Below, piece by piece: positions 1 to 24,441 of a DNA stretch of 24,484 nt; position 1 is the stretch's first letter; the number at the start of each line of letters is the position of its first letter. The position numbers and the translations under genes were made by a program. The stretch lies in sequence record NZ_CP136144.1; one strand, written 5' to 3'. A model generated the notes under the pieces. That model worked only from the letters and a program-made list of their open reading frames with translations. It searched no databases and was not told the origin of the DNA. The DNA is from a plasmid.

Positions 1-870
1 ATGAGGTTTCAGGTGAGAACTGTAACAGGGTTAACGAAAGTCAGGCATAGAAATGAGGTTGGCGTTACTCTGGCATCTCTTTCTCTTTCAGCGAAAAGAG
101 TCTTGTTTCTTGCACTTTGTCAGATTGACTCAAAAGAAATGTTGAATGATGAAATTTTAGAAGTTGATGCCGATCTTTTTTCTAAAACAACCACTTTGGA
201 TAAGTACGCCGCATATGCAGCATTAAAAGAAGGTGCAAAAGTTCTGGCTTCAACAACATTAGTGTTGAATAGAGATGATTTAAAAAATCTATCTAATGAA
301 CTGGGTATCGCTACATCTAAAAATAAGATGCCTGACAGACTGGATTTAAACTTAACTGAATTCTGTGCTTATTATGATCATCTGGCAATAGTTCGCATTA
401 AGTTCACTAATACAGCGAAACGATATTTTTCAAAACTTATTGGTTCTGAAAATAGATATACCACACAGGTGTTAAAATCTGTTGTTATATTGAACAGTGT
501 AAACTCCACAAACTTGTATCAGGTTATCAGAAAATACTATAGCTTAAATCCTGCGAGTAAATCCTTCGAAATTTCAGTTGATCAACTTAAAGACGAAATG
601 GGACTTTATCATATTGAAAATGGTGAGAAGGTATACAAATATCCAAAGTACTCTTTTTTTATTCGTGATGTTATAAATAAAAGCATAAAGGAAATAATAG
701 AAAAAACAGAGATAAAAACTATAAAGTTTACCGTTGTAGGAAAAAAAGGGCGTATGGTTCATATGTTAAAATTTGAATATTCTCTTAATGAAGACACGTC
801 TATTTCTGATGAAGATACTAAATTCTTGGAGAAGTTTGATAAGGTAATTTCATATAAACAGAAAGGATAA
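1..870 (+). CDS. pir: Plasmid replication initiator pi (Rep_3-type, R6K pir-like), 289 aa
   Basis: Translation closely resembles recalled R6K pi protein (N-terminal ...KVRHRNE...LASLSLSAKRVLFLAL...DSKE, C-terminal ...KTEIKTIKFTV...GR.V.MLKFEY). Lies immediately downstream of the iteron array and operator at the window end (circular context). Confidence 0.85.
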   Translation: MRFQVRTVTGLTKVRHRNEVGVTLASLSLSAKRVLFLALCQIDSKEMLNDEILEVDADLFSKTTTLDKYAAYAALKEGAKVLASTTLVLNRDDLKNLSNELGIATSKNKMPDRLDLNLTEFCAYYDHLAIVRIKFTNTAKRYFSKLIGSENRYTTQVLKSVVILNSVNSTNLYQVIRKYYSLNPASKSFEISVDQLKDEMGLYHIENGEKVYKYPKYSFFIRDVINKSIKEIIEKTEIKTIKFTVVGKKGRMVHMLKFEYSLNEDTSISDEDTKFLEKFDKVISYKQKG

Positions 871-874
871 TATT

Positions 875-1726
875 ATGGAACAAATAAAACTACACAAAGA
901 TAGTAATGTTTCAATAATCGTTATTCCAAATCATTTACTCAAAAATATCGGATGGGATGATGGTACGTTATTGGATGTGGTAAAATCAGATAATGCACTT
1001 CATATTAGAAGAAAGGAAGACGTCGTAGACTTAGTCACTAAACCTTGCGTGGATATTTTAACCGCTACGTTTAAAAATATTAAACCTGGAAAAATTATAA
1101 AGTATAATAGCAAGCTGAATGAAAGTCTTAATAAGCTCCACGTCTCAGCAAGGAGAGTCTTTTTTATTTGTTTGTATCTTTATTTTAATGGTAGGTATAA
1201 CTCAGATGGGTCTATTTTAATCAGAGCTGATAAGTATGCTGAATTTATTGGTATAGATCGCACAATGGCATACAAACAGATGAAAGACGCAGCAGATTAT
1301 TTTTCTTCCAATATAAAATTAATATCTCTTTGTGATTATATAAAAAATGAAGGGCTATTAAGAGTAGCTCTTTCTACTGAGACAATAAATTTTATTTCTG
1401 CTGTAGATGGTAGAAAATATCAAACTACAGTTGTATTGTATCAGTCTGCTGTAAAACTCAGTGGTCGATATTCATGGAATTTATATCAGTTGATAAAATC
1501 TCGGCTATTAGATAAATCCGGTGCTTTTAGCATTAAACTGGATGAATTAATGATTGAATTGAACTCTAGAGTAAATTTGGAATTTAAAGATTATAAAAAA
1601 TCAGTTATTGGTCGGTCTATAGACGAAATTGTAGAAAAAACAGAAATTAAAAGTATTAAATGCGTTAATGCTGAGAGGCAGGGTAGAAGAGTCAGCAAAG
1701 TCCGTTTTGAGATCGAAATGAGGTAA
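875..1726 (+). CDS. bis: Second Rep-like protein paralogous to pi (bis-like), 283 aa
   Basis: Starts 4 nt after the pir stop (operon). C-terminus (IVEKTEIKSIKCVNAERQGRRVSKVRFEIE) parallels the pi C-terminus (IIEKTEIKTIKFTVVGKKGRMVHMLKFEYS). Matches the pir-bis arrangement of IncX plasmids. Confidence 0.6.
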   Translation: MEQIKLHKDSNVSIIVIPNHLLKNIGWDDGTLLDVVKSDNALHIRRKEDVVDLVTKPCVDILTATFKNIKPGKIIKYNSKLNESLNKLHVSARRVFFICLYLYFNGRYNSDGSILIRADKYAEFIGIDRTMAYKQMKDAADYFSSNIKLISLCDYIKNEGLLRVALSTETINFISAVDGRKYQTTVVLYQSAVKLSGRYSWNLYQLIKSRLLDKSGAFSIKLDELMIELNSRVNLEFKDYKKSVIGRSIDEIVEKTEIKSIKCVNAERQGRRVSKVRFEIEMR

Positions 1727-1729
1727 CTC

Positions 1730-2176
1730 ATGGCTAAAATCTATCAATTCCCCCAGGGGGATGAACGCGGTAAATTCAGGGAAGAAATCGCCAGAGAACG
1801 TAAGAAACGTTTTGCTGTGAAAACAGGGAGCACCTTTGTTAAGTGGCTTGGATGGACCTGGTTTTATCTTCGTCTTCTGGCCGCCAGTGTTTTACATTTT
1901 ATCTCTGTTTTTGTGTTAGCCATTCTTGGTGCGTTTAAATGGGCTGTGTTCTGGCTGGGGGGTATTTTGTGTGTCATCACCTGGTATCATCTCGATCACC
2001 AGTTATGGACGCCACAAAATCTGACTATACCGGTGATTACGGCAACCTGGATTTTGGGACTGCTGGCTGAGCCTCTGATGGAGCTGCTCAACAAAACTAT
2101 GCCCTGGCACAAGTTACTTGTTCCCGAACCTGCGGACGAAAGCACCGAGAACAGTAGCGAGATAAGCCAGCAATGA
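1730..2176 (+). CDS. Hypothetical small membrane protein (two hydrophobic helices), 148 aa
   Basis: ATG 4 nt after the bis stop. Hydrophobic stretches LGWTWFYLRLLAASVLHFISVFVLAILGAF and WAVFWLGGILCVITW. No recognisable family. Confidence 0.45.
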   Translation: MAKIYQFPQGDERGKFREEIARERKKRFAVKTGSTFVKWLGWTWFYLRLLAASVLHFISVFVLAILGAFKWAVFWLGGILCVITWYHLDHQLWTPQNLTIPVITATWILGLLAEPLMELLNKTMPWHKLLVPEPADESTENSSEISQQ

Positions 2177-2210: not shown

Positions 2211-2315
2211 CACTGCGATGCAGGATAGGGCAAACGCCGCAAAATGACGTCTCTGACGCCATTCCGCAACGTTTGCCCGGTGACCTACAGTCGGTTCTTA
2301 TTGGAGATGTTTATG
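2211..2315. repeat. oriT-like inverted-repeat copy A (~105 bp; partner at 19423-19527)
   Basis: About 89 bp are identical bar one mismatch to the reverse complement of 19439-19527, and similarity continues through the RBS and ATG of the downstream gene. Contains an internal imperfect palindrome (caaacgccgcaaaatgacgtctctgacgccattccgcaacgtttg). Confidence 0.6.
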
Positions 2316-2666
2316 AAATATCTGGTCAAAGAGTTTATTAACGAGAAATATTCTAAGGCTGTTAATATTTTAAAGGATAATCTTAAAGAATACTATCATG
2401 TTTTTTATGGTGTGAGATTAAGTGAGATTCTTTTTCCTACCAGTGAATATGGCACAGATGCTTTCTTTAAAGAATTTGAATTAATTAACAGTGTAATACT
2501 TCCATTAGTAATATTTGATTTTATAGACCGAAAGCCGATCATGGTTATCGGCTTTGAGGAAGTGCCTGGGATTGATTCACTTATTGACTCTGGTATGGAA
2601 GTTGTTTTGTTAGATGGTTTAAGCGATCTGCTACTGGTTGAAAAATTGATGCCATTGTTTGATTAA
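2313..2666 (+). CDS. Hypothetical protein, ~117 aa
   Basis: ORF 2244-2666 in the track. The N-terminal 19 aa are an artefact of reading through the inverted repeat. GGAG at 2303-2306 favours the ATG at 2313. No family recognised. Confidence 0.45.
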   Translation: MKYLVKEFINEKYSKAVNILKDNLKEYYHVFYGVRLSEILFPTSEYGTDAFFKEFELINSVILPLVIFDFIDRKPIMVIGFEEVPGIDSLIDSGMEVVLLDGLSDLLLVEKLMPLFD

Positions 2667-6765: not shown

Positions 6766-6838
6766 CCGTTTACTCCATTATATGGAGCAGACTCCCGATA
6801 CTTACTCTTACACTGCCTGTCATATCGGTTGTTCTTCG

Positions 6839-6875
6839 ATGTTGGTTGAAGACAGTTCCACTCCAGCCAGAGCAC
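6839..6875. repeat. Repeat unit 1 (atgttggttgaagacagttccactccagccagagcac)
   Basis: ~31/37 identity with 7026-7062. Candidate sRNA-like element. Confidence 0.4.
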
Positions 6876-7025
6876 TGACAACAGCACCACCTGTTTTTCA
6901 GCCAGGACTTAAAATCGCTTAATCCTTGCGGGAAGGCTGGAGTTATAACGGTTCAGAACCAACCAGCGTATTATACGCATAAGCGGATACGGTTGCATTC
7001 CATATCATGTAGACATATTATGTCT

Positions 7026-7062
7026 ATGTTGGTTGAAGAGAGTTCTTCTCCAGCCAGAGCCA
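7026..7062. repeat. Repeat unit 2 (atgttggttgaagagagttcttctccagccagagcca), preceded by palindrome tagacatattatgtcta
   Basis: Direct repeat of 6839-6875, immediately upstream of a strong terminator. Confidence 0.4.
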
Positions 7063-7080
7063 CCAACTCAAGGCTGGAAA

Positions 7081-7119
7081 GCACAAAAAAGCCCGATTAG
7101 CAGTCGGGTTTTTTTGTGC
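7081..7119. terminator. Bidirectional rho-independent terminator (gcacaaaaaagcccgattagcagtcgggtttttttgtgc)
   Basis: Perfect stem cccga/tcggg flanked by an A-run on one side and a T-run on the other. The whole element is palindromic. Confidence 0.6.
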
Positions 7120-7818: not shown

Positions 7819-7919
7819 TGAAGCGTACTCCTGAATAACACTCTATTGCACATAGTAGCAAGCCAGATCCCGCGCAACCAGTATAAGGGGTCTGACGCTC
7901 AGTGGAACGAAAACTCACG

Positions 7920-10900
7920 TTAAGCAACGTTTTCTGCCTCTGACGCCTCTTTTAATGGTCTCAGATGTCCTTTGGTCACCAGTTCTGCCAGCGTGAAGGA
8001 ATAATGGCCGAGCATATTGATATGTCCGTGGCAAAGCGGGGAGAGGCGTGCGATATCTTCATCATTCAGTGTTTCACCCTGCGCCCGGAGATGATCCAGG
8101 GCTGCCTGCATATAAATAGTGTTCCATAACACGACGGCGTTAGTGACCAGCCCCAGTGTGCCCAGTTGATCTTCCTGACCGTCGGTATATCGTTTTCTTA
8201 TCTCACCTTTTTGACCGTGACAGATGGCTCTGGCAACGGCATGGCGACTTTCTCCCCGATTAAGCTGGGTCAGAATGCGCCGGCGGTAATCTTCATCATC
8301 AATATAATTAAGCAGATACAGCGTTTTGTTGATGCGCCCCACTTCAATGATTGCCTGAGTCAGTCCGGAAGGACGTTCACTTTTCAGCAATGAACGGACC
8401 AGCACTGAAACCTGTACTTTGCCCAGCTTCAGGGAGCCAGCGGTCCGGATCATTTCGTCCCACTGAAGGACTATTTTTCGGGGATCTGATTGCCCTCTGG
8501 CAATATCATTCAGCACGCCATAGTCGGCATCATGGTCCATTCGCCAGAAAACCGAAGCACCGGCATCAGCCAGGCGTGGAGAAAACTGGTATCCCAGCAG
8601 CCAGAAAAGGCCAAAGACAAGTTCGCTGGCACCTGCTGTATCGGTCATAATTTCGGTTGGATTCAGCCCGGTCTCCTGTTCCAGAAGACCTTCCAGCACA
8701 AAGATAGAGTCCCTCAGCGTCCCCGGTATAACGATGCCATGAAAGCCGGAATACTGATCGGACACAAAGTTGTACCAGGTGATCCCTCTGTTATTACCAA
8801 AGTATTTGCGGTTCGGTCCGGCATTGATTGTTCTGACTGGCGTAACAAAGCGCATTCCATCTGCAGATGCCACTTCTCCTCCACCCCATATCTGTGCCAG
8901 TGGCAGCGTTGCCTGAAAATCAACCAGTCTGGCATTAGCGCTGGTGATAGTTTCAGCCCGCAGATAGTTCGCTTTTGTCCAGTTCAGCCGGTGTCGGGTC
9001 AGTGCAGGAACATTTGATCTGATCAGTGGTTCCAGACCGATATTGCAGGCTTCAGCCATCAGCACGGCGCTGATGCTGACGGGCAGATCATCAACTCTGG
9101 CACTGGCTTCACTAGCATGGAAAAACTCATCAGCAAATCCGGTATGGGCGTTAATTTCGAGCAGCAACTCCGTTAAATCCACCGGAGGGAGTAGATCACT
9201 GATCATTTTGCTCAGTCGTTTCAGACTGTCCGGCTCATCAAGACTGGCGAGGGGAGAAATTGTCAACCGGGGCTTCGGGCCAGAAACATCGAGTTCGACA
9301 GCCTCATTTTCGCAAAGACGTGCAGCAACCTGTCTGTAACGACTATCAAGCTGATGACCCAGAGATTTTATTGCTTCCTGCGGGTCTGTCGGGTGCCCCA
9401 AAGAACGATAAACCTTAATCCGGTTTGCCTGCCAGTCAGCACCCTGTAGTAATCTTGCACGAGGATCTCCCCACCGGTTACTGCCGGTAACGTAGACATC
9501 CCTCCGCCTCAGACTATCCTGCAGTTTACTGAGAAAGCAGAGCGTGTATCCCCTGCGGGTGATATGTTTTTCCTTGTTAATCACCAGCCGTTTCCATGAC
9601 CGACTGATAATTTCCGTTGGTGCGTCGTCAAAAAACTGCCGCCGTGAGCTGAACTCCCGGCTGAGGTAGTCACAGGCATTCAGAGTGGTAACCCCGGCAG
9701 GTGCGGATGAAAATTTAACGGTATTCAGCAGATGGGGCAGGAAACGACGAACGCGCCCGTACTGCTCCACCATTTCTTCATGAAAATTATCGTCTGAGGG
9801 CCGGGCAATTTCACGGACAAGCGTGATGATTTCAGCCAGCTTTTGCCTTGGGATGTAGCTGAACACCTCAGCACGAATCGATTCGTCCGGTGTTTCTTCT
9901 TTCAGCAGGTACGAACATGCGCTGGCGAGCGCCAATGCAGATTTATCCAGATCCTTCAGCGAGCGGAGCCGTTTTTTCTGCCCAATCTTTCTGGCGTCAC
10001 GGATGATAACGGCCAGCATGGCGTCCAGAACGTCCAATGCATCATCCAGCGCCAGCGTTTCCCATGCAAGGACAAAGGCAACCAGAACCGCCATCCTTTT
10101 CTGCGGTGACATCCTGGCAATATTGAACACCGAAGTCATACCAGCATAACGTGCGAGATTTTTCAGGCGCACAGCCGGGAGTGTACTCAGGTTTTCAGCA
10201 TGCAGGCCAAAATCGTTCAGAGTTTTCCAGCGTTCAATTGCTTCATTAAACGCCGGACCACTGATGGTCACAGGGCCCTTTTTCAGTGATTCCAGTAAAG
10301 ACAGGCGGCTGCAATCAGTTGGCCCCAGCAGCATCTCCAGCTGTGAACGCTGTTCGGCTGACGGTATCAGTGCCAGTTTGTTCCACAGGCGCAACGTCGC
10401 CTTTTCCCTTACCTCTGAAATCAACCGGGTCAGCGTAGTGGCTCCGGGGAGAATAATACGATGTTGCATAAGCCACCCTGTCGCCAGATCGAAAAGCAGG
10501 CCAGGACGTTCGTTGCTTATCCAGCTCCGGGTATATAAAAGACGGGTAAGGCGAAATGTCCAGGGCCAGGCAAATTCACGATACTGATAGTGCTGACGTA
10601 TCAGCGCTGCATGCTCACGGCGGGTATTTTCCCTCTGACCGTATTCTGCAAGAACGGTGATATCACGAATCCCGAGCTGTCTGGCGGTAAAATGCCGGAC
10701 GCCGGAAGGAATATGATTCATATCGGTGAGGAAGGTGCCCAGAAAACGGACACATCCAATTTGCAGGGCAATGCCCAGACGGTTGTGATCACCTCTGCTT
10801 TTTCCGATAAATTCCTTGTCTGCTTCATCAAGGTGAAAATATCGTGCCAGCTGAAGCTCATCCGGTTCACCGGTGAATCTGCCATAGCTTTCAGTCTGCT

Positions 10901-10925
10901 CAGTGGTCAGAAAGTCAACGGGCAT
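7920..10925 (-). CDS. tnpA: Tn3-family transposase TnpA, 1001 aa
   Basis: Track ORF 7920-11084. True start is MPVDFLTTEQ at 10925. Typical Tn3 TnpA sequence. Confidence 0.9.
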   Translation of the reverse strand: MPVDFLTTEQTESYGRFTGEPDELQLARYFHLDEADKEFIGKSRGDHNRLGIALQIGCVRFLGTFLTDMNHIPSGVRHFTARQLGIRDITVLAEYGQRENTRREHAALIRQHYQYREFAWPWTFRLTRLLYTRSWISNERPGLLFDLATGWLMQHRIILPGATTLTRLISEVREKATLRLWNKLALIPSAEQRSQLEMLLGPTDCSRLSLLESLKKGPVTISGPAFNEAIERWKTLNDFGLHAENLSTLPAVRLKNLARYAGMTSVFNIARMSPQKRMAVLVAFVLAWETLALDDALDVLDAMLAVIIRDARKIGQKKRLRSLKDLDKSALALASACSYLLKEETPDESIRAEVFSYIPRQKLAEIITLVREIARPSDDNFHEEMVEQYGRVRRFLPHLLNTVKFSSAPAGVTTLNACDYLSREFSSRRQFFDDAPTEIISRSWKRLVINKEKHITRRGYTLCFLSKLQDSLRRRDVYVTGSNRWGDPRARLLQGADWQANRIKVYRSLGHPTDPQEAIKSLGHQLDSRYRQVAARLCENEAVELDVSGPKPRLTISPLASLDEPDSLKRLSKMISDLLPPVDLTELLLEINAHTGFADEFFHASEASARVDDLPVSISAVLMAEACNIGLEPLIRSNVPALTRHRLNWTKANYLRAETITSANARLVDFQATLPLAQIWGGGEVASADGMRFVTPVRTINAGPNRKYFGNNRGITWYNFVSDQYSGFHGIVIPGTLRDSIFVLEGLLEQETGLNPTEIMTDTAGASELVFGLFWLLGYQFSPRLADAGASVFWRMDHDADYGVLNDIARGQSDPRKIVLQWDEMIRTAGSLKLGKVQVSVLVRSLLKSERPSGLTQAIIEVGRINKTLYLLNYIDDEDYRRRILTQLNRGESRHAVARAICHGQKGEIRKRYTDGQEDQLGTLGLVTNAVVLWNTIYMQAALDHLRAQGETLNDEDIARLSPLCHGHINMLGHYSFTLAELVTKGHLRPLKEASEAENVA

Positions 10926-11646
<721 letters not shown>

Positions 11647-11816
11647 TACGCCTATTTTTATAGGTTAATGTCATGATAATAATGGTTTCTTAGACGTCAG
11701 GTGGCACTTTTCGGGGAAATGTGCGCGGAACCCCTATTTGTTTATTTTTCTAAATACATTCAAATATGTATCCGCTCATGAGACAATAACCCTGGTAAAT
11801 GCTTCAATAATATTGA

Positions 11817-12689
<873 letters not shown>

Positions 12690-12898
12690 CTGTCAGACCA
12701 AGTTTACTCATATATACTTTAGATTGATTTAAAACTTCATTTTTAATTTAAAAGGATCTAGGTGAAGATCCTTTTTGATAATCTCATGACCAAAATCCCT
12801 TAACGTGAGTTTTCGTTCCACTGAGCGTCAGACCCCTAAAAGAACTTTCCGCTAAGCGATAGACTGTATGTAAACACAGTATTGCAAGGACGCGGAAC

Positions 12899-13438
12899 AT
12901 GCCTCATGTGGCGGCCAGGACGGCCAGCCGGGATCGGGATACTGGTCGTTACCAGAGCCACCGACCCGAGCAAACCCTTCTCTATCAGATCGTTGACGAG
13001 TATTACCCGGCATTCGCTGCGCTTATGGCAGAGCAGGGAAAGGAATTGCCGGGCTATGTGCAACGGGAATTTGAAGAATTTCTCCAATGCGGGCGGCTGG
13101 AGCATGGCTTTCTACGGGTTCGCTGCGAGTCTTGCCACGCCGAGCACCTGGTCGCTTTCAGCTGTAAGCGTCGCGGTTTCTGCCCGAGCTGTGGGGCGCG
13201 GCGGATGGCCGAAAGTGCCGCCTTGCTGGTTGATGAAGTACTGCCTGAACAACCCATGCGTCAGTGGGTGTTGAGCTTCCCGTTTCAGCTGCGTTTCCTG
13301 TTTGGGGTCGTTTGCGGGAAGGGGCGGAATCCTACGCTAAGGCTTTGGCCAGCGATATTCTCCGGTGAGATTGATGTGTTCCCAGGGGATAGGAGAAGTC
13401 GCTTGATATCTAGTATGACGTCTGTCGCACCTGCTTGA
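12899..13438 (+). pseudogene. Truncated IS91-family (ISCR2-like) transposase, N-terminal zinc-finger portion only (179-aa reading frame)
   Basis: CESCHAEHLVAFSCKRRGFCPSCGARR zinc-binding motif typical of the IS91/ISCR Tnp N-terminus. Frame ends just inside the strB 3' region. Confidence 0.5.
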
Positions 13439-14246
13439 TCGCGGCCGCGATAGCTAGATCGCGTTGCTCCTCTTCTCCATCCGCGTTCCAAGCTGCGGAA
13501 AGGCACCCATAAGCGTACGCCTGGTCGAGCAGGCGACGCGGATCGACGTCCAGCGCACGAGAGAATGCGTCCGCCATCTGTGCAATGCGTCTAGGATCGA
13601 GACAAAGGTCGTCTCTGTCAGCCGGATCGTAGAACATATTGGCGGCGCCAAAGCCCACTTCACCGACCAGACCGACGGGATCTATCACCAGCCAGCCGCG
13701 ACTGGAGAACATGATGTTTTCATGATGCAGATCGCCATGTAGCCCACGCAGTTCCGAGGCATTGCTCATCATTTGATCGGCTATAATCGCCGCGTGGACG
13801 TAGTCAGTTTGACAACCTGCGTTTTGATCATCGCGCGCCCGCTGAAACAAAGCTGCAAAGCGATCCCGGATCGGGAGAAGGGCAGAAGGCAGGGGTTCCT
13901 CAGATGCGGCATACAGCTTCGCCATTAGTTCCGCTGCAATTTCGGTCGCCTGGTAGTCGCCGTGCTCGGCAACGATGTGAGAGAGCATTCGCTCCCCGGC
14001 ATATTCGAGCAACATCAGATTGTTCTCACGACCGAGCAACCGGACTGCTCCCCTCCCATTGCGCCATACCAGATAGTCGGCCCCGCGCAGTTCATCAGCA
14101 ATGTCTTTTATAGGTTTCAATCCCTTGACGATTGCAGGAGTCCCGTCTGGCAATGAAACTTTCCAAACGAGGCTGGAAAAGGTGTCCGCAATGAGAACAG
14201 GTTGCGAAACGTGCCAATGAGCAGGAAAAACAGGCGGCATGAACAT
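13410..14246 (-). CDS. strB: Aminoglycoside 6-phosphotransferase APH(6)-Id, 278 aa
   Basis: MFMPPVFPAHWHVSQPVLIADTFSSLVWKV... Start overlaps the strA stop (ATGA). Confidence 0.9.
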   Translation of the reverse strand: MFMPPVFPAHWHVSQPVLIADTFSSLVWKVSLPDGTPAIVKGLKPIKDIADELRGADYLVWRNGRGAVRLLGRENNLMLLEYAGERMLSHIVAEHGDYQATEIAAELMAKLYAASEEPLPSALLPIRDRFAALFQRARDDQNAGCQTDYVHAAIIADQMMSNASELRGLHGDLHHENIMFSSRGWLVIDPVGLVGEVGFGAANMFYDPADRDDLCLDPRRIAQMADAFSRALDVDPRRLLDQAYAYGCLSAAWNADGEEEQRDLAIAAAIKQVRQTSY

Positions 14247-15049
14247 CAACCCCAAGTCAGAGGGTCCAATCGCAGATAGAAGGCAAGGCGTTCGCGGTCG
14301 GGGGCTTCGATCCCCAATACATTGAATAGGACAGCGAAGGCGCGCTCTGCTTCATCTGGCGCTGCCCAGTTCTCTTCGGCGTTAGCAATCATGAGTGCCA
14401 AATCGGCATAGCGATCTGCTGTTCCGAGCCGCCCAAGGTCGATCAGACCCGTGCATTGAAGAGTTTTAGGGTCCACCATGAAGTTCGGCATGCAGGGATC
14501 ACCATGGCAAACAACCATATCGGTGCGCTCTTGGTCGAGCCGCACCGGTAGCTCTCGTTCGACACGAGCCAAAAGATCGAGCTGCGGCGTACTCTTGTCC
14601 TCGTCCGGTAAGAAGTCGGGATTGACGGCATTGCGGGACACCACATCAACGGCGCGTCCGAACATTCGCGACAGCCTGCGCTCAAACGGACATTGATCAA
14701 CCGATAGGCTGTGAACAGCGCCAAGTTGCTGCCCCATTGACGGCCACGCTTTGAGCAAATCCGCTCCAGACAGATCAGCCGCCGGTACTCCCGGAATTGC
14801 CGTTATCACCAAGCATGCACCCTCCTGTTCCTCCTGCCAGTTGATGACCTCGGGGCAAGCCACACCTCGACCTTTGAGCCAAATGAGGCGGTCACGCTCT
14901 CCAGCGAGCTCACCGCGGCGGGAAGCAGGTGCGATTTTCGCGAAGGCATGCCCGTCACCACGTCGAAAAACAAAATCACCAGATTCTCCGCCTCTGACAG
15001 GCAACCAGTCAGAATGCGATTCACCAAAAAAAATATTAGTTCGATTCAA
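14246..15049 (-). CDS. strA: Aminoglycoside 3''-phosphotransferase APH(3'')-Ib, 267 aa
   Basis: MNRTNIFFGESHSDWLPVRGGESGDFVFRRGDGHAFAKIAP... Confidence 0.9.
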   Translation of the reverse strand: MNRTNIFFGESHSDWLPVRGGESGDFVFRRGDGHAFAKIAPASRRGELAGERDRLIWLKGRGVACPEVINWQEEQEGACLVITAIPGVPAADLSGADLLKAWPSMGQQLGAVHSLSVDQCPFERRLSRMFGRAVDVVSRNAVNPDFLPDEDKSTPQLDLLARVERELPVRLDQERTDMVVCHGDPCMPNFMVDPKTLQCTGLIDLGRLGTADRYADLALMIANAEENWAAPDEAERAFAVLFNVLGIEAPDRERLAFYLRLDPLTWG

Positions 15050-15109
15050 TGGAGGTTCCTTCAGTTTTCTGATGAAGCGCGAATATAGAGAAATATCCCG
15101 AATGTGCAG

Positions 15110-15925
15110 TTAACGAATTCTTGCGGTTTCTTTCAGCGCCGCCAATACCGCCAGCCCGTCGCGCAAGGGGCGCGGCTCGTGTGTGCGGATGAAGTCAGCT
15201 CCACCTGCGGCGGCGGCAAGCTCTGCAGCGAGTGTCGCGGCCCCGACATCCCCCGGACCACGGCCTGTGAGCGCGCGCAGAAAGGATTTGCGCGAAACAG
15301 ACAGAAGCACCGGCAAATCGAAGCGCAGCCGCAATTCATCGAACCGCGCCAGCACCGAGAGCGAGGTTTCGGGAGCAGCCCCCAGAAAAAACCCCATGCC
15401 GGGATCAAGGACAAGGCGGTTGCGTTTGATACCGGCACCCGTCAGCGCCGCGATGCGCGCGTCAAAGAACGCCGCAATGTGATCCATGATGTCGCCAGCG
15501 GGTGCCTCGCGCCGATCTGCCTGCCCGTCTTGCACCGAATGCATAACGACGAGTTTGGCAGATGATTTCGCCAATTGCGGATAGAACGCAGCGTCTGGAA
15601 AACCGCGAATATCATTGAGATAGGCCACACCACGCGACAAGGCATAGGCTTGCGTCGCGGGTTGATAACTGTCGAGCGAGACGGGAATGCCATCTGCCTT
15701 GAGCGCGTCCAGCACCGGCGCGATACGCGCGATTTCTGTGTCGGACGAAACAGGCGCGGCGTCGGGATTGCTGGATGCCGGACCGAGGTCGATCACATCT
15801 GCCCCCTCGGCCATCAGCTTACGCGCCTGCGCAATGGCTGCGTCTGGCGCCAGATACCGGCCTCCATCGGAGAAACTGTCCGAGGTTATGTTGACGATGC
15901 CGAAAATGATGAGCGATTTATTCAT
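15110..15925 (-). CDS. sul2: Sulfonamide-resistant dihydropteroate synthase Sul2, 271 aa
   Basis: MNKSLIIFGIVNITSDSFSDGGRYLAPDAAIAQARKLMAEGADVIDLG... Confidence 0.9.
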   Translation of the reverse strand: MNKSLIIFGIVNITSDSFSDGGRYLAPDAAIAQARKLMAEGADVIDLGPASSNPDAAPVSSDTEIARIAPVLDALKADGIPVSLDSYQPATQAYALSRGVAYLNDIRGFPDAAFYPQLAKSSAKLVVMHSVQDGQADRREAPAGDIMDHIAAFFDARIAALTGAGIKRNRLVLDPGMGFFLGAAPETSLSVLARFDELRLRFDLPVLLSVSRKSFLRALTGRGPGDVGAATLAAELAAAAGGADFIRTHEPRPLRDGLAVLAALKETARIR

Positions 15926-16213: not shown

Positions 16214-17033
16214 GGCACTGTTGCAAATAGTCGGTGGTGATAAACTTATCATCCCCTTTTGCTGATGGAGCTGCACATGAACCCATTCAAAGGCCGGCAT
16301 TTTCAGCGTGACATCATTCTGTGGGCCGTACGCTGGTACTGCAAATACGGCATCAGTTACCGTGAGCTGCAGGAGATGCTGGCTGAACGCGGAGTGAATG
16401 TCGATCACTCCACGATTTACCGCTGGGTTCAGCGTTATGCGCCTGAAATGGAAAAACGGCTGCGCTGGTACTGGCGTAACCCTTCCGATCTTTGCCCGTG
16501 GCACATGGATGAAACCTACGTGAAGGTCAATGGCCGCTGGGCGTATCTGTACCGGGCCGTCGACAGCCGGGGCCGCACTGTCGATTTTTATCTCTCCTCC
16601 CGTCGTAACAGCAAAGCTGCATACCGGTTTCTGGGTAAAATCCTCAACAACGTGAAGAAGTGGCAGATCCCGCGATTCATCAACACGGATAAAGCGCCCG
16701 CCTATGGTCGCGCGCTTGCTCTGCTCAAACGCGAAGGCCGGTGCCCGTCTGACGTTGAACACCGACAGATTAAGTACCGGAACAACGTGATTGAATGCGA
16801 TCATGGCAAACTGAAACGGATAATCGGCGCCACGCTGGGATTTAAATCCATGAAGACGGCTTACGCCACCATCAAAGGTATTGAGGTGATGCGTGCACTA
16901 CGCAAAGGCCAGGCCTCAGCATTTTATTATGGTGATCCCCTGGGCGAAATGCGCCTGGTAAGCAGAGTTTTTGAAATGTAAGGCCTTTGAATAAGACAAA
17001 AGGCTGCCTCATCGCTAACTTTGCAACAGTGCC
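16214..17033 (+). mobile_element. IS26 (820 bp) with 14-bp terminal IRs GGCACTGTTGCAAA
   Basis: IRL at 16214-16227, IRR at 17020-17033. Flanking 8-mers differ (gtcttgtt vs aaaaaatc), so no target-site duplication. Confidence 0.9.
16277..16981 (+). CDS. tnpA: IS26 transposase Tnp26, 234 aa
   Basis: MNPFKGRHFQRDIILWAVRWYCKYGISYRELQEML... Confidence 0.9.
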   Translation: MNPFKGRHFQRDIILWAVRWYCKYGISYRELQEMLAERGVNVDHSTIYRWVQRYAPEMEKRLRWYWRNPSDLCPWHMDETYVKVNGRWAYLYRAVDSRGRTVDFYLSSRRNSKAAYRFLGKILNNVKKWQIPRFINTDKAPAYGRALALLKREGRCPSDVEHRQIKYRNNVIECDHGKLKRIIGATLGFKSMKTAYATIKGIEVMRALRKGQASAFYYGDPLGEMRLVSRVFEM

Positions 17034-17358
17034 AAAAAATCTTCTCCTGCTCTTTTACTTCATTTATGACACTTAGAGGAACTTCAGCAGGATATTCACC
17101 AAAACTGACCAGTCCATAAACATTTTTCATCCGGGTAAAGCAGGATGGATGTACAACCTCAAAATCCAGAAGAACGAATACATAACCGGGAAACATTGGC
17201 ATGATTTGTCCCCTGTATGCACTACAGTCACGCCTCTTATAGAAAGTGCGTATAACTGGATTGTAGTAAGCGATACCGCTCCGGGATAACTGCAACAGAA
17301 CCGACTGATGAAAATGCGGAGAACACTGAAGCAGGTAAAACTGTTTCTGTCCTTTCAT
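17034..17358 (-). pseudogene. actX: NusG/RfaH-family (IncX ActX-like) gene, 3' end truncated by IS26 (~108 native codons, then reading into the IS26 IR)
   Basis: NGN-domain-like YLLQCSPHFHQSVLLQLSRSGIAYYNPVIRTFYKRRD...PMFPGYVFVLLDFEVV. No KOW domain. The track ORF 16927-17394 continues into IS26. Confidence 0.45.
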
Positions 17359-17503
17359 ACTCAATCCCCGATATACGGATGTGACAAAACACAAGCCAAC
17401 CGTGGTTGCTTGTGAGAAATCACGCCCCTATGAAGAGAGACTTTTTACTATTGCGCGAAGTTTATACTACAAGTGGCTTATGCTAAGTTCAACACATAAA
17501 ACA

Positions 17504-17710: not shown

Positions 17711-18877
17711 TTATAAACCCCAAAACTTAATCCCTGTTTTCAGCTTCTGTTCTGACTGTAACGTGGATGCTTTCTGCTGCGTAAACTGCGCCATTCGCTG
17801 TTGTTGCTTCAGCAGCATATCAGGGCTGTTCAGTACCAGCTCTTTGCTGGCTGAAGGTGTTCTGTCTACGCCCTTAACCCCCAGATTTTCTAACTGCCAC
17901 TCATTTCTGTGAACCGTTTTCCAGCCATGCTGAACACCGTTTTTATCGAGCGCCGGGATTTTTACTTCTTTCTGACCAAGTTTCTTCAGTCTGACAAGAT
18001 CACCTGCTTTAACGCTTTCCCGCGAACATAAGCCCCCAAAATCAGCCCCCCAGTATGTTTTCTCAACCCCCTTGTTAAGAGTCTTTAGCTTTATAAAATG
18101 TTGCTTAGACTTTGTTTTATCGTTCTGATAATGGTCATAGCCAATATCAACAACCTCATAAACACCTTTCTGTCTTTTTGGTGCTGTATTATGTGCATCT
18201 TTAACAGACTGATTAAGTCCATGCTGTTGCTTATGGGTCGCTTTAACGTCATAACCTTTTAACTTCAACTCTTCACAAAAACCTGTACGAATTTCCCGTA
18301 AATCTTTTTTCCTGATATCAGCGCGTTTACCGTCATTATCTCGGATACGAAAAACAACATGAACGTGAGGATGTTCTTTCTTGTCACAGTGGTATCCAAG
18401 AACAAAACGGTGATTAGGATATTTTTTCTGCATCGTTTTCCTGACAGACTCCAGCAAATCTTCAGGCTTTGCTTTCGCTGAAACTGGAGGCGAGAAGACA
18501 ATATTCTGTGTGATTTTTTTATTTTCTTTACCTTTATCATTCATCACATGCTGAGGATCATTAGCACGATCTATCATGTGCTCTTTAGCCTCCAGAATTT
18601 CGTCACCAGTCCATACCCGACCGCTTTCACTCATCACTGGTAGCTCTGACTCACGGCTCATATAATCAATACTGTTCCGAATCCCCTGACGAGTAACAGC
18701 ACCTCCAGATATTTTGACAACAACCTCCTTACTGGCACCCTTGCGGTTGATACGTTCCTGAACATTGCGGCTATAGTTCTTTCCACCATTTTTGACTTTA
18801 TGAGCGAAAGCTGACTTACGACCATTTTCTGATGACTTTCGTTTAACACGATATTCTTTATCAACGTAAACGCCCAT
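17711..18877 (-). CDS. taxC: Conjugative relaxase (MOB-P/Q-type His-triad), ~388 aa
   Basis: HCDKKEHPHVHVVFRIRDNDG = HxDx(3)HxHxH relaxase motif III. N-terminal Tyr (MGVYVDKEY). GGAG RBS. The track ORF starts at a GTG at 18883; the ATG at 18877 is preferred. Confidence 0.65.
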   Translation of the reverse strand: MGVYVDKEYRVKRKSSENGRKSAFAHKVKNGGKNYSRNVQERINRKGASKEVVVKISGGAVTRQGIRNSIDYMSRESELPVMSESGRVWTGDEILEAKEHMIDRANDPQHVMNDKGKENKKITQNIVFSPPVSAKAKPEDLLESVRKTMQKKYPNHRFVLGYHCDKKEHPHVHVVFRIRDNDGKRADIRKKDLREIRTGFCEELKLKGYDVKATHKQQHGLNQSVKDAHNTAPKRQKGVYEVVDIGYDHYQNDKTKSKQHFIKLKTLNKGVEKTYWGADFGGLCSRESVKAGDLVRLKKLGQKEVKIPALDKNGVQHGWKTVHRNEWQLENLGVKGVDRTPSASKELVLNSPDMLLKQQQRMAQFTQQKASTLQSEQKLKTGIKFWGL

Positions 18878-18879
18878 AA

Positions 18880-19425
18880 TCACATCTCCACTTTATTTGA
18901 AACAGTTCTCCCTTTACATAACATAATGTAATTCTCAAACTGATTCTTAAGATTAAAAATTTCTGTTGTAAGACGCTCCGCATCCTGATAGAAACCATCT
19001 TTATCAAGAACCCTGGTCTGATCATTAACAATGATATAATGGAAATTACGACCGATCTTATCAATTGAATTACGGCAACGATTCATCATCAGCAGTTCCT
19101 GGTCAAAGAAATCCAGTTCATTTTCAAGTGTCGTTTGTATGCGGTAACGACATTCTCGGGATAACGTCCATCCGTGACGATTAGCAGCTCTTTCAATATC
19201 AGCCCTTTGTTTACCTGTTAAGTACATCGTTGTTTTGATAAAATCATTATTATCAAAAAACGTATTTATACCCTTACTGCCAGCTTTACTTTTTAATAAA
19301 GCATTTGCTAAAAGTTTCATGCCTTTAGCTACTGTTAAAGCTGGTTCATCTGGATAAAGAGTTTTAAGGCAATCCAGCAAATCATCATGCTGATTTTCAT
19401 CAATTCTGAATTGAACTTTTTTCAT
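18880..19425 (-). CDS. taxA: Relaxosome accessory protein (MobC/TaxA-like), ~181 aa
   Basis: Immediately upstream of the relaxase gene, 2-nt spacing. Contains LTGKQRADIERAANRHGWTLSRECRYRI. Start is the ATG at 19425 with a GGAG RBS. The track's N-terminal 23 aa come from reading into the inverted repeat. Confidence 0.5.
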   Translation of the reverse strand: MKKVQFRIDENQHDDLLDCLKTLYPDEPALTVAKGMKLLANALLKSKAGSKGINTFFDNNDFIKTTMYLTGKQRADIERAANRHGWTLSRECRYRIQTTLENELDFFDQELLMMNRCRNSIDKIGRNFHYIIVNDQTRVLDKDGFYQDAERLTTEIFNLKNQFENYIMLCKGRTVSNKVEM

Positions 19426-19527
19426 AAAATTCTCCGACAAGAACCGACTGTAGGTCACCGGGCAAACGTTGCGGAATGGCGTTAGAGACGTCATTTTGCG
19501 GCGTTTGCCCTATCCTGCATCGCAGTG
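19423..19527. repeat. oriT-like inverted-repeat copy B (partner of 2211-2315)
   Basis: Reverse complement matches copy A, with one mismatch over ~89 bp. Lies directly upstream of the taxA-like accessory gene, where an oriT is expected. Confidence 0.6.
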
Positions 19528-19750
19528 GATCTGGCACCGCTCATAAATTGTGCTTGAGCATCAACAAAAATGCAAAAAGGCCGATGTTGTCATGGCTGAA
19601 CATACGTGCGTCTGCGACCGGAAACTCGATCAATGCGGTAAGGACAGTGCCGTCAGGTTCGCTCCGCGAACGGTCTGGCAGGAAGCGCAAGCGCAGTCCC
19701 GCGCAATATATCAGAAAGCACCTCCCGAAATACGGGAGGGCTTCGGCTAT

Positions 19751-20023
19751 TCAGCTAAGGTTGCTCTGTTCAGGTTGCTGAGTGTAGCCTTCCATGCCCT
19801 GACGGGCATCAAAAAGCCAGCGCCGGAAGTTACTCATTCTTTCAAGGTTAGCTTTGCTTGGTTTTTTGCCACGATTACCACTTAATATCCGCCATACTCG
19901 TATTCCTGCTTTATTAGTCCAGTGCAGAACAATTTCTCCTTTGCTGTTAAAAGCAAGAGAAAAACGTACAGCGCCTTGCCGCAACTCTCCACTGACAAAG
20001 GACACAAAATCAGATTTTGTCAT
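19751..20023 (-). CDS. Hypothetical protein, 90 aa
   Basis: GGAGG 6 nt upstream of the ATG. Follows the 48-aa ORF by 16 nt. Confidence 0.45.
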   Translation of the reverse strand: MTKSDFVSFVSGELRQGAVRFSLAFNSKGEIVLHWTNKAGIRVWRILSGNRGKKPSKANLERMSNFRRWLFDARQGMEGYTQQPEQSNLS

Positions 20024-20039
20024 AAAGCCTCCGGTTTAT

Positions 20040-20186
20040 TTATCTGTTCTCTTTTGTGTCTTTTTTTTCCAGTGCTTTTCTGAGTAATGCCATATACTCA
20101 GGAAAGACATGGAATGGCATCAAAGGGAAAACCGGACGCCCACCCTTTTCAACGTCATTTATTGCTGATAATATGCGTTCCGACAT
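20040..20186 (-). CDS. Hypothetical small protein, ~48 aa (MSERILSAINDVEKGG...)
   Basis: AGGA RBS before the internal ATG at 20186. The track ORF starts further upstream, inside the palindrome. Confidence 0.35.
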   Translation of the reverse strand: MSERILSAINDVEKGGRPVFPLMPFHVFPEYMALLRKALEKKDTKENR

Positions 20187-20216
20187 TTTATTCCTCGCAA
20201 CAGAATCAAGTGTCAC

Positions 20217-20245
20217 GGTATCAGGTTGCCCCACAACCTGATACC
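20217..20245. promoter_or_regulatory. Perfect 12-bp inverted repeat GGTATCAGGTTG-ccccA-CAACCTGATACC (operator or leader hairpin)
   Basis: Seen directly. Lies between the 59-aa and 48-aa genes and is not followed by a U-tract. Confidence 0.4.
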
Positions 20246-20255
20246 ATCTTTATCT

Positions 20256-20435
20256 TTACTTTATTAACTTCTCAATTGCTTCTTTTTTTGCTTTCTCCTG
20301 TTCTGATGGTGGGTATGCAAGGTCATACCAGTTATCAATACAACGAATAACTCTTTCTTTAGATAATCCACATTGCTCAAACCAAAATTTTATATTTCGG
20401 TTTAATGATGCTTTTGCGCTAAACTCTCTTTCCAT
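20256..20435 (-). CDS. Hypothetical small protein, 59 aa (MEREFSAKASLNRNIKFWFEQCGLSKERVIRCIDNWYDLAYPPSEQEKAKKEAIEKLIK)
   Basis: Manually translated. Below the track's 60-aa cut-off. Weak RBS. Confidence 0.3.
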   Translation of the reverse strand: MEREFSAKASLNRNIKFWFEQCGLSKERVIRCIDNWYDLAYPPSEQEKAKKEAIEKLIK

Positions 20436-20454
20436 TTTCAGACCTTTACTAAAA

Positions 20455-20469
20455 GGGGGAATATCCCCC
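20455..20469 (-). terminator. Rho-independent terminator GGGGGATATTCCCCC + TTTTT (minus strand) for the 109-aa gene
   Basis: Perfect 5-bp GC stem with 5-nt loop and T5 on the minus strand, 9 nt after the stop at 20478. Confidence 0.6.
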
Positions 20470-20477
20470 CTGATTAA

Positions 20478-20807
20478 TTAGTAGTAAGAAGAAAATCGAT
20501 GTTTTTCTTCCGGTAGAGTTTTATACGCAGTTTCAAAATCTTCGATTTTGATTGCCAGCTCATCACCAAAATCTTTTATCTGGCGCTTAAAACATTCACC
20601 AGTAAAATCATTTAAAACGGGAGTTTTAAAGCCGACCATTGAATCGGTATATTCTGAATTAGCGCGAATCTCGCGAACGGTGACGGTTTTTTTACCGTGA
20701 ACGGAAAGAACCTGGTAGAAGGTTACATTGGTTTGCTCATAGCCCCATGATGATACAAAGACATCACCAACAGAGACAGTATCATTTTTAAAAGTTAATA
20801 CTTTCAT
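20478..20807 (-). CDS. Hypothetical protein, 109 aa
   Basis: ATG preceded by GGGAG, within the conserved leader cassette. No family recognised. Confidence 0.5.
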   Translation of the reverse strand: MKVLTFKNDTVSVGDVFVSSWGYEQTNVTFYQVLSVHGKKTVTVREIRANSEYTDSMVGFKTPVLNDFTGECFKRQIKDFGDELAIKIEDFETAYKTLPEEKHRFSSYY

Positions 20808-20900
20808 TTTTAGCTCCCGCCCGTTTGGGCAACTGGATCATGGTAAGGAACTATTCCTGACCTACAAACAAATTATACCATCAAATGATGGTAATGCAAT
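20808..20900 (-). promoter_or_regulatory. Promoter/operator/leader cassette copy 1: -35 TTGCAT, 16-nt spacer containing palindrome TACCATCAAATGATGGTA, -10 TATAAT, then conserved leader cccaaacgggcgggagc
   Basis: Read on the minus strand. ~85% identical to 22549-22642. Confidence 0.55.
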
Positions 20901-21143
20901 TTATTTAGTCTCTTTATTCTGATTTTTTTCTCGCTTTACTAGCTGGTAATCGGGATGTTCATCAGCCAGGAGCAAAAGTAATTCATACGTACCAGCGGCT
21001 AGACCGCGAGATGTTTTGCCGGATGTTTCTTTGGCCTGCCAGGCTGATAACGAAAAACCAAACCGTTTAGCGGCTTCCTGCTGCGTAAAGCCAGCTTTGA
21101 TACGAGCTTGTTTCACCTCTTCAGGTGTGGGTTTAAAACTCAT
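20901..21143 (-). CDS. XRE-family helix-turn-helix DNA-binding protein, 80 aa
   Basis: TQQEAAKRFGFSLSAWQAKETSGK HTH. Last gene of a three-gene operon with overlapping stop/start codons. Confidence 0.55.
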   Translation of the reverse strand: MSFKPTPEEVKQARIKAGFTQQEAAKRFGFSLSAWQAKETSGKTSRGLAAGTYELLLLLADEHPDYQLVKREKNQNKETK

Positions 21144-21414
21144 GATTTAGTACCTTCACAATAGTATCTGTATAGAATTGCAATAAAATTGGATCATCAA
21201 TTTCATCTTTAACGTTACAGAATTCTTCATAATAAAATGATTTATGGAAAACAACCTTTTTAGTTGTTTTTTTATCCGCTTCTTTAGAGCGAACTTTCAT
21301 TAGTTTTTCAAGTTCAATAAACAAACGTGTTGCATCTTCAGACACAACAATCCTGTATGTTACATTACCTTTATTTTTCCTGTCGCTCAGGACTTCATTC
21401 ATCTTTTGCCTCAT
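21133..21414 (-). CDS. Hypothetical protein, 93 aa
   Basis: Overlaps the upstream gene by ATGA and the downstream gene by 11 nt (translationally coupled). Confidence 0.45.
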   Translation of the reverse strand: MRQKMNEVLSDRKNKGNVTYRIVVSEDATRLFIELEKLMKVRSKEADKKTTKKVVFHKSFYYEEFCNVKDEIDDPILLQFYTDTIVKVLNHEF

Positions 21415-21977
21415 AGCTGTTTAATAAACCCCGCTACCTTTATGAGCTGATCCACACTCAGGCCACGTATTACCATTTCAAAACCGCCGCCCCGTTCTGA
21501 CACGTTACCATCTAACCCATTCTCAACTTTAAAACCGGTCAATGTCCCATGCCAGCTATCAAGACGTATTAAACGAGATAGCATTCCTTTCAGAATTTGC
21601 GTTTGCTCCCGTTTTTTTTGTAACTGCCTTTCATATTCCATTGCCTTCTCTACATTTTCGAAAGCATCTGTCAGGATTTTCTTTTCAATATCGGCGGCAA
21701 TTTCTACAGGGTTACGTTCTGGCGATACAGTGCAAGTATGGTAAGGACTTCGCCAACTTCGACTATCTACGCTTCCAATGATAACTAACCTTCCCTTCTC
21801 CATTCGAATATGTATAGAGTAATTTTTATACTGAGGCGAGGTTAGTTTTATCCTGTACTGGCAATCATCGAGCAGGTTTACACGCCAGCCGTTCCCCAGG
21901 ATTCGACATACGATTTCAAAAACGGGTTGATACCGTTCAAAAAACTTATCGTTTTGCATATTCCTCCCAACTGACAC
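21411..21977 (-). CDS. Hypothetical protein, 188 aa
   Basis: GGGAGGAAT ATG. First gene of the operon. No family recognised. Confidence 0.5.
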   Translation of the reverse strand: MSVGRNMQNDKFFERYQPVFEIVCRILGNGWRVNLLDDCQYRIKLTSPQYKNYSIHIRMEKGRLVIIGSVDSRSWRSPYHTCTVSPERNPVEIAADIEKKILTDAFENVEKAMEYERQLQKKREQTQILKGMLSRLIRLDSWHGTLTGFKVENGLDGNVSERGGGFEMVIRGLSVDQLIKVAGFIKQL

Positions 21978-22009
21978 CTTCGTTATTTAGTGAACATATT
22001 TATAATAAT

Positions 22010-22029
22010 AAGGGGCTTTCGCCCCCTTC
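22010..22029 (-). terminator. Stem-loop GGGGGCGAAAGCCCC followed by TTATTATTAT (minus strand), downstream of the J-domain gene
   Basis: 5-6 bp GC stem immediately after the stop at 22033. Confidence 0.45.
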
Positions 22030-22032
22030 TGG

Positions 22033-22548: not shown

Positions 22549-22642
22549 TTTTCGCTCCCGCCCGTTTGGGCTGCTGGAATCTGGCAGGGAACCATTCCCA
22601 ACCAACAAACTCATCATACCATCATATGATGGTATGGCAAGT
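22549..22642 (-). promoter_or_regulatory. Promoter/operator/leader cassette copy 2: -35 TTGCCA, 16-nt spacer with perfect 20-bp palindrome ATACCATCATATGATGGTAT, -10 TATGAT, conserved leader and GGGAG RBS
   Basis: Homologous to 20808-20900. Confidence 0.55.
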
Positions 22643-24162: not shown

Positions 24163-24294
24163 AAAAACGCTAAAGTTGAGAGGATTTTTAACATAAGTTG
24201 AGAAGATTTTTAAGTAAGGTTGAGAAGATTTTTAACTAAAGATGAGAGGATTTTTAAGTAAGGTTGAGAAGATTTTTAACTAAAGATGAGAGGA
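24163..24294. repeat. Six tandem 22-bp iterons (aRgWtgagaRgatttttaaSNN): gamma-origin-like Rep-binding array
   Basis: Units at 24163, 24185, 24207, 24229, 24251 and 24273. Units 3-4 are repeated exactly as 5-6. Preceded by AT-rich block 24100-24160. Confidence 0.85.
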
Positions 24295-24391
24295 TTTTTA
24301 AGTGTATCCACAGATTTAAAAAAGATCATGAAAAACATAATGTTATGAATTCATTTTAATGTGAATACATAAAGATCTTTATATCTAAAGG

Positions 24392-24441
24392 TGATAAGCT
24401 TTTTAAGAAAAGGTTGTAGTTTGTAGTTGATATACAACCTT
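24392..24441. promoter_or_regulatory. pir promoter-operator: iteron-like half-site GATAAGCTTTTTAAG plus inverted repeat AAGGTTGTA-N14-TACAACCTT
   Basis: 13/15 match to the iteron core. IR arms begin with the iteron's AAGGTTG. Lies 45-90 bp upstream of the pir ATG (circular). Confidence 0.45.

Follow-up and report, generated by a model that had tools for sequence, protein, structure and literature searches.

The window analysed here, that is the whole 24,484-bp stretch of record NZ_CP136144.1, is a complete circular IncX1 plasmid that has been opened at its first rep ATG. It is taken to be circular because the distance from the first rep gene to stbD in the near-identical plasmid p44A_3 (NZ_CP140789), 1,064 nt, matches the distance across the window ends, where the same 1,064 nt bridges end and start, and because an open reading frame (1-870) starts at base 1. 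The backbone is ~98-99% identical to that of pOLA52 (NC_010378). Two inverted copies of one element separate a cargo arc from an arc of replication and maintenance genes (Table 1), one copy running into the start of ddp3 and the other into the start of taxA. The cognate relaxosome set, consisting of the TaxC relaxase, TaxA/Ddp1 and Ddp3, is present with all members above the curated NCBIfam cut-offs, and the DDP3 model aligns from residue 1 of the protein read from the start at 2313. The translation of taxC contains the histidine motif HCDKKEHPHVH, which together with the Pfam Relaxase domain agrees with the histidine triad and N-terminal catalytic tyrosine region that characterise MOBP relaxases.

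Little could be added about the accessory proteins from other resources. Pfam gave nothing above threshold for TaxA or Ddp3, and a search for solved structures related by sequence found none for TaxA or TaxC and one chance-level match for Ddp3 (E = 0.98). A sub-threshold Pfam match of Ddp3 to DUF2726 (E = 0.043), which reaches E = 0.00096 for the variant in CP099007.1, where the protein is annotated as DUF2726, offers a starting point for working out how this uncharacterised relaxosome or origin protein folds.

Several other features of the plasmid deserve mention in their own right. A single iteron array precedes the tandem Rep3-family genes, which share only 24% identity (E = 2e-18); the double arrangement is also found in p44A_3 and CP099007.1, and pOLA52 and R6K have a single rep gene. 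A Tn3-family transposon (7886-12837) carrying tnpA, tnpR and blaTEM has perfect 39-nt inverted repeats (7886-7924 and 12799-12837), and strB-strA-sul2 lie at about 13410-15925. An Rfam scan of the whole window gave one match, unrelated to the repeat, to the AgrB antisense RNA (7029-7116, plus strand; 63.4 bits against a gathering score of 40), which adjoins a direct repeat (6836-6873 and 7023-7060) in a region whose pOLA52 equivalent is annotated with DinQ-like type I toxin (dqlB) genes. Two ~105-nt leader regions (20803-20907 and 22544-22648), 81% identical, immediately precede two minus-strand genes, ORF 20478-20807 and the DnaJ-domain gene, each leader having three short hairpins and then a shared Shine-Dalgarno (SD) sequence and ATG at its end, and a 72-nt segment (19744-19815) recurs as an inverted repeat of 74% identity at 22642-22713. 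A common regulatory leader is one possible function of these leaders and the 72-nt segment; another is to act in the leading region as a promoter or priming signal in single-stranded form.

Table 1. Features of the 24,484-bp IncX1 plasmid that bear on the two inverted copies; LIR, long inverted repeat; a slash marks a predicted nick.
Feature	Coordinates	Strand	Evidence or content
LIR, ddp3-side copy (probable IncX oriT)	2211..2318	- (predicted transferred/nicked strand)	Repeat; alignment to both R6K copies; PMC3402527, PMC3332091
LIR, taxA-side copy (probable IncX oriT)	19420..19527	+ (predicted transferred strand)	Repeat and alignment
Nick motif TATCCTG/C, ddp3-side	2220..2227	-	Motif scan; predicted nick 2221/2220
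Nick motif TATCCTG/C, taxA-side	19511..19518	+	Motif scan; predicted nick 19517/19518
Hairpin, ddp3-side, 51 nt, 24-bp arms, 3-nt loop, 5 G.T pairs	2228..2278	-	Folding
Hairpin, taxA-side, 23-bp stem, 5-nt loop	19460..19510	+	Folding
Conserved box AAGAACCGACTGTAGGTCACC (nicked strand), between hairpin and gene start	2279..2299	-	Near-invariant across IncX1, X2, X3, X5
SD GGAG (2303-2306) and ATG (2313-2315) of ddp3	2303..2315	+	Inside the repeat
ddp3 (DNA distortion polypeptide 3, 117 aa)	2313..2666	+	NCBIfam NF041452 DDP3, 165 bits (cutoff 140)
SD (19432-19435) and ATG (19423-19425) of taxA		-	Both within the repeat
taxA/ddp1, relaxosome accessory protein, 181 aa	18880..19425	-	NF041451 DDP1, 235 bits (cutoff 150)
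taxC/ddp2, MOBP-class relaxase	17711..18877	-	NF041450 MobP1, 431 bits, above cutoff; Pfam Relaxase 1.2e-11
Two tandem Rep3-family initiator genes (1-870, 875-1726) and bis (1730-2176)	1..2176	+	Adjoin the ddp3-side copy
Gamma-origin iterons, six 22-bp repeats and one degenerate copy	24173..24406	+	Between the two copies
Cargo arc			par genes, Tn3-blaTEM, strAB, sul2, IS26
Replication/maintenance arc			Small ORFs, DnaJ-domain gene, stbDE, iterons, two rep genes, bis

In a repeat search of the window the two copies came out as an inverted pair of 108 nt each, 95% complementary, and base-by-base comparison places the five mismatches at 2255 (G versus A), 2300, 2302, 2308 and 2309. Their longest exact inverted match is 44 nt, against a maximum of 18 and a mean of 15 nt in 30 shuffles of the window. 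The original prediction, made from the letters of the window, held that 2211-2299 equals the reverse complement of 19439-19527 bar one mismatch, and this proved exact, position 2255 being the sole difference. It was also right that similarity continues through the GGAG and the ATG, but the genes do not have near-identical 5′ ends as it went on to say: the resemblance stops after ATG AAA, and the starts of ddp3 and taxA have in common the ribosome-binding site and the first two codons only. Paralogy of Ddp3 and TaxA was considered as an explanation of the common start and rejected (BLASTP E = 34). The description of the copies as 17 kb apart and read by inward-facing genes is true only of the linear display. 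On the circle the copies are separated by 17,101 nt across the cargo arc and by 7,167 nt across the replication and maintenance arc, ddp3 and taxA read outward from the latter, and the inward-reading appearance is due to the point where the circle was opened.

Both copies are built to the same plan. Read 5′ to 3′ on the nick-bearing strand, each runs from the complement of the gene's ATG and SD through the box AAGAACCGACTGTAGGTCACC and a 51-nt hairpin directly into TATCCTGCATCGCAGTG. The nick consensus of the MOBP/RP4 type is YATCCTG/Y, and in both copies the hairpin ends in ...GCCC and is followed directly by TATCCTGC, which is the layout of a MOBP-type nick region, with YATCCTG/Y lying 3′ of a same-strand inverted repeat. 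By analogy with the RP4-type consensus the cut would fall at GCCCTATCCTG/CATCG, within the string GCGTTTGCCCTATCCTGCATCGCAGTG that spans the nick site; TATCCTAC is a substituted form of TATCCTGC. The 16-nt core GCCCTATCCTGCATCG is present only at the two LIR copies and occurs nowhere else in the window with up to three mismatches. The shorter pattern YATCCTGY is found eight times in the window (2.55 expected), and the six sites outside the copies (including 9515-9522, plus strand, and 17087-17094, minus strand) were taken as chance occurrences, having neither the extended core nor an adjacent hairpin.

The internal palindrome had been described as ~45 bp long; it exists, but spans 51 nt, with two 24-nt arms and a 3-nt loop. 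Fold prediction gave a stable hairpin in each copy, on the nick-bearing strand. Folded as single-stranded DNA, the minus strand of the ddp3-side hairpin reaches -24.4 kcal/mol (z = -4.9), and its plus strand, where internal loops interrupt the stem, -19.8. A similar picture emerges for the taxA-side hairpin, where the A at the equivalent of 2255 leaves a 23-bp stem and a 5-nt loop: the plus strand reaches -23.9 kcal/mol (z = -4.05) and the minus strand, again with internal loops, -18.9. Uninterrupted pairing is thus seen only on the nick-bearing strand, owing to the fact that the five imperfect positions are G.T on that strand and C.A on the other. The box beyond the hairpin (2279-2299 in the ddp3-side copy) is a candidate accessory-protein binding site; its GACTGTAGGTCAC part is kept also in the ColRNAI plasmid pINF300.3 and in pEC224_8, both of which are without ddp3 and taxA.

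Avila, Nunez and de la Cruz are said to have placed, in 1996, oriT-alpha and oriT-beta of R6K in its ~100-bp long inverted repeats. We compared the window with R6K (NZ_LT827129, IncX2), an IncX3 NDM-5 plasmid, an IncX5 KPC-3 plasmid, a divergent IncX1 plasmid and pOLA52, and two copies were found in the same places in every one of these. In the window, pOLA52, R6K and the IncX3 and IncX5 plasmids the inverted copies flank the replication region, beside taxA-taxC on one side and rep-bis-ddp3 on the other. Similarity to known IncX oriTs is clearly present, since each of the two copies is 83-85% identical to each R6K copy over the LIR (~100 nt). The ddp3-side copy probably corresponds to R6K oriT-beta and the taxA-side copy probably to oriT-alpha.

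The alignment covers 15 sequences, including relaxase-less small plasmids. A 31-nt core, CATTTTGCGGCGTTTGCCCTATCCTGCATCG, which comprises the nick-proximal arm and the nick region, is invariant throughout (the nick-motif columns at 2220-2227 in 15/15), and the distal arm and loop are variable. Across the 15 members 96.4% of the hairpin cells pair, compared to 40-54% when the partner column is slid. Of the two hairpin arms only the distal one varies, always by one-sided changes (G.T to A-T, or C-G to T.G), and the 15 sequences hold no two-sided compensatory changes and no excess of covariation over shuffles, owing to the fact that the nick-proximal arm never varies. G.T cells number 49 on the nicked strand versus 2 on its complement in the 15 members, which are related sequences whose cells are not independent events. 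Comparative support for the hairpin consists of the slid controls and this strand asymmetry.

The literature on these plasmids points the same way. Two oriTs in long inverted repeats, one near taxC and the other near repX/ddp3, are given as a hallmark of IncX plasmids (PMC3402527, PMC3332091; both cite Avila et al. 1996), and the dual functional oriTs of R6K are credited to Avila et al. 1996 (J Mol Biol 261:135) in the citing passages of PMC5587640, PMC11915502, PMC10123127 and PMC3402527. For R6K, Avila et al. 1996 are reported to have found that either copy alone is nicked by the relaxase and can be mobilised. In PMC8623487, IncX1 oriTs were annotated by reference to that of pOLA52. A very close analogue of the window plasmid is pECTm80, a 21.4-kb IncX1 plasmid without pilX that carries oriT-alpha and oriT-beta inside its alpha and beta LIRs; it was not mobilised, the sole helper tried being of the non-cognate RK2 type (PMC3332091).

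When the R6K alignment, the nick motif and hairpin, the neighbouring genes and the IncX papers are considered together, the core of the original prediction, an oriT-like element paralleling the two oriTs of R6K, is borne out. We put at roughly 0.9 the probability that the two copies are two origins of conjugative transfer, that is, IncX LIRs homologous to R6K oriT-alpha and oriT-beta. The expectation that one of them would sit where an oriT belongs, upstream of the relaxase accessory gene, agrees with the finding that the taxA-side copy holds the SD and ATG of taxA/ddp1 (DDP1, 235 bits).

The element is by no means confined to IncX backbones. In PLSDB it occurs at 3,979 places in 2,455 plasmid records, of which mobility typing classes 1,550 as conjugative, 304 as mobilizable and 601 as non-mobilizable. 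For instance, the hairpin and nick core are found in pEC224_8 (2.9 kb, rep_cluster_2335; L008 2792-2883) and in pEC24-7 (1.5 kb, Col(MG828); L009 536-600), neither of which has an annotated relaxase gene. Among small plasmids of unrelated replicon with the same lack of an annotated relaxase gene, the Col(MP18) plasmid pFHI_NMBU_10_05 (3.4 kb) keeps the nick and proximal arm with a diverged distal arm; IncX-type cores in this set map to L012 (about 159-195) and to L011 (3257-3292), the latter truncated to the proximal arm and nick. In the ColRNAI plasmid pINF300.3 (L006 2353-2445 and 19778-19870) the core lies upstream of a mobC-type gene. The core is thus kept without adjacent ddp3 or taxA, which argues for an oriT function rather than a gene-expression signal. 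Small plasmids carrying only an oriT of the R6K-like family have been described as “hitchers” (PMC10123127), and the presence of the same core on tiny relaxase-less plasmids suggests that they depend on the IncX-type machinery of a co-resident plasmid to move.

These small plasmids bear directly on the possibility that oriT function is confined to the taxA-side copy, with the ddp3-side copy mainly an expression or operator element for ddp3, or a relic of duplication. It is true that the SD and ATG of both genes lie inside the repeat and that the relaxase genes adjoin one copy only. However, in every IncX lineage examined the ddp3-side copy shows no more variation in its nick core and hairpin than the taxA-side copy does, the part of the repeat that is shared with the genes is the least conserved part, and the hairpin plus nick persists in small plasmids without ddp3 and taxA. 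Both R6K copies are, moreover, reported as functional where PMC5587640 and PMC3402527 cite Avila 1996. The original prediction had itself called each copy the promoter and ribosome-binding site of its gene, and this stands for the shared SD and ATG but not for the promoter: there is no consensus sigma-70 match in or beside either copy, and the best that could be picked out by eye is a weak candidate with 7/12 matching positions (TTCCGC, an 18-nt spacer, TACAGT). We consider it very improbable that the ddp3-side copy is mainly an expression element or a relic.

Slightly less probable still is that the LIRs are mainly the alpha and beta vegetative origins, sites of DNA distortion dependent on Ddp1, Ddp2 and Ddp3, for which transfer is secondary. 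The repeats do flank the gamma-origin iterons and the rep genes, and alpha and beta origins have been linked to LIRs and Ddp proteins (PMC3332091, PMC4207749, citing Flashner et al. 1996). Against this, iteron-like sites (up to 3 mismatches in 19 nt) are found only at 24173-24406 and none lies near either copy, in a search that half-iterons would escape; the invariant part of the repeat is a relaxase-type nick region; and the same core is conserved in the relaxase-less small plasmids, whose replicons are unrelated. A role in alpha and beta replication may equally be an addition to transfer rather than an alternative to it.

The last possibility, that the repeats are substrates for homologous inversion and that the plasmid exists as two isomers, is geometrically sound, as the original prediction of an invertible accessory region supposed, with 108 nt of 95% inverted identity being long enough for RecA-dependent exchange and the concerted evolution of the copies implying some exchange between them, but we give it almost no weight: when the predicted bis-LIR-taxA junction of the isomer was built and searched in plasmid records, it was covered to at least 80% of the query in 0/2,079 matching records, versus 767/2,082 for the native junction, and related molecules did not show both orientations.

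Taking the two copies as origins of transfer, we can propose how they would work. The relaxosome genes, the motif positions and the strand-specific fold are as described above, and the steps that follow draw on the general workings of MOBP relaxases for where the nick falls, which way transfer runs and what the proteins contact. TaxC would assemble on each copy with the help of TaxA and probably of Ddp3, recognising the invariant nick-proximal hairpin arm and TATCCTG/CATCG. It would cut one strand after the G of TATCCTG, stay on the 5′ end and lead the strand into the recipient 5′ to 3′. Since the copies are inverted, the predicted cuts fall on opposite strands, 19517/19518 on the plus strand and 2221/2220 on the minus strand. 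From either nick, the 7.2-kb replication and maintenance arc would enter the recipient first and the relaxosome genes last, the final stretch to be transferred being the neighbouring relaxosome gene and the hairpin. On the single strand that is transferred the imperfect positions of the hairpin are G.T, and its proposed role there is to re-form as a signal for termination and recircularisation. The inner ends of the copies also hold the start codons of taxA and ddp3 with their ribosome-binding sites.

This geometry does not allow two transferable arcs to be released by nicking at both copies, as had been suggested. One motif is on the minus strand (2220-2227) and the other on the plus strand (19511-19518), leaving one nick site per strand, and double nicking would therefore produce two nicked full-length strands; separate arcs would need directly repeated oriTs. 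The window has no type IV secretion or coupling-protein genes. IS26 (about 16214-17033) interrupts the NusG-like gene actX (16927-17394) downstream of taxC, pointing to the loss of the mating-pore genes in an IS26-bounded deletion. Since taxC, taxA, ddp3 and both putative oriTs are kept and the mating pore is missing, the plasmid is predicted to be mobilisable only with an IncX helper. MOB-suite classes the near-identical p44A_3 as mobilizable.

The comparisons also bear on how the two copies relate to each other. Within each of six plasmids they are 94-99% identical, while identity between three lineage groups (IncX1 and IncX3; R6K; pE16 and IncX5) is 75-86%. When copies from different plasmids are paired in all combinations, mean identity is 84.5% for same-side and 84.4% for cross-side comparisons, and just outside the repeat it collapses to 6-9 of about 22 positions. 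By these measures of sequence identity the two copies evolve in concert. In CP099007.1 the ddp3-side copy has the taxA-type spacer at 3/4 variable positions between the conserved box and the ATG (L010 1840-1858), which suggests a longer gene-conversion tract between copies.

Genes of leading regions are known to use the transferred strand as template (PMC11541004). In the window, the open reading frames at 19751-23420, which include the DnaJ-domain gene, small ORFs and stbDE on the taxA side of the arc, are encoded on the minus strand and are hence transcribed from the plus strand, which is also the strand that the taxA-side oriT is predicted to transfer. For the two rep genes and bis the situation is mirrored: they are encoded on the plus strand and transcribed from the minus strand, the one predicted to leave from the ddp3-side oriT. 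The orientation of the arc genes, read off the window's ORF list and, for the other plasmids, the annotations of their records, is the same in R6K, pOLA52, IncX3 and IncX5, and fits the template rule for both oriTs at once. We offer, as a speculative and rather doubtful extension, a two-way leading region, in which both nicks point into the 7.2-kb arc, the entering strand templates the genes nearest to it, the pair is homogenised by gene conversion and the hairpin is tuned to the transferred strand. A two-way leading region, concerted copies and a transferred-strand hairpin were not found stated in the IncX literature searched, though older R6K papers, which lie outside that search, may cover them.

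The genes blaNDM, mcr-1, blaKPC, qnrS and oqxAB are spread by IncX plasmids, and what these plasmids and their reduced derivatives can transfer depends on the oriT pair. For the plasmid studied here the prediction is that any co-resident IncX helper should be able to mobilise it, taking blaTEM-1, strAB and sul2 along. The observations on concerted evolution and gene orientation are modest ones.

Several known systems can be set beside the element. One is the oriT of RP4 and other IncP plasmids, which has the same TATCCTG/C a few nucleotides 3′ of a same-strand inverted repeat and an accessory gene reading away from the oriT; RP4 differs in having a single oriT, shows no wider sequence similarity, and the hairpin described here is much longer, with 24-bp arms. 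The hitchers pEC224_8 and pEC24-7 have the same hairpin-plus-nick core, but as a single copy, with no relaxase gene and without the segment that contains the ribosome site of taxA or ddp3. In the IncX1 group, pOLA52 (Norman et al. 2008) and pECTm80 have LIRs that are 94-99% identical to ours at the same positions and with the same flanking genes, differing by few point changes, whereas the cargo here consists of Tn3-blaTEM, strAB and sul2. R6K (IncX2) likewise has two inverted copies, by ddp1/taxA-ddp2/taxC and by pir-bis-ddp3, flanking the gamma origin, with 83-85% LIR identity, an identical 31-nt core including TATCCTGC and the same order of hairpin and then nick. Its hairpin differs in the distal arm and loop, where several positions that are G.T here are A-T and two are mismatched, and the host plasmid here differs from R6K in being IncX1, in having two tandem rep genes and in being without a type IV secretion system. 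The paired IncX/R6K oriT is thus already known, and the understanding of the family is unchanged by the present example.
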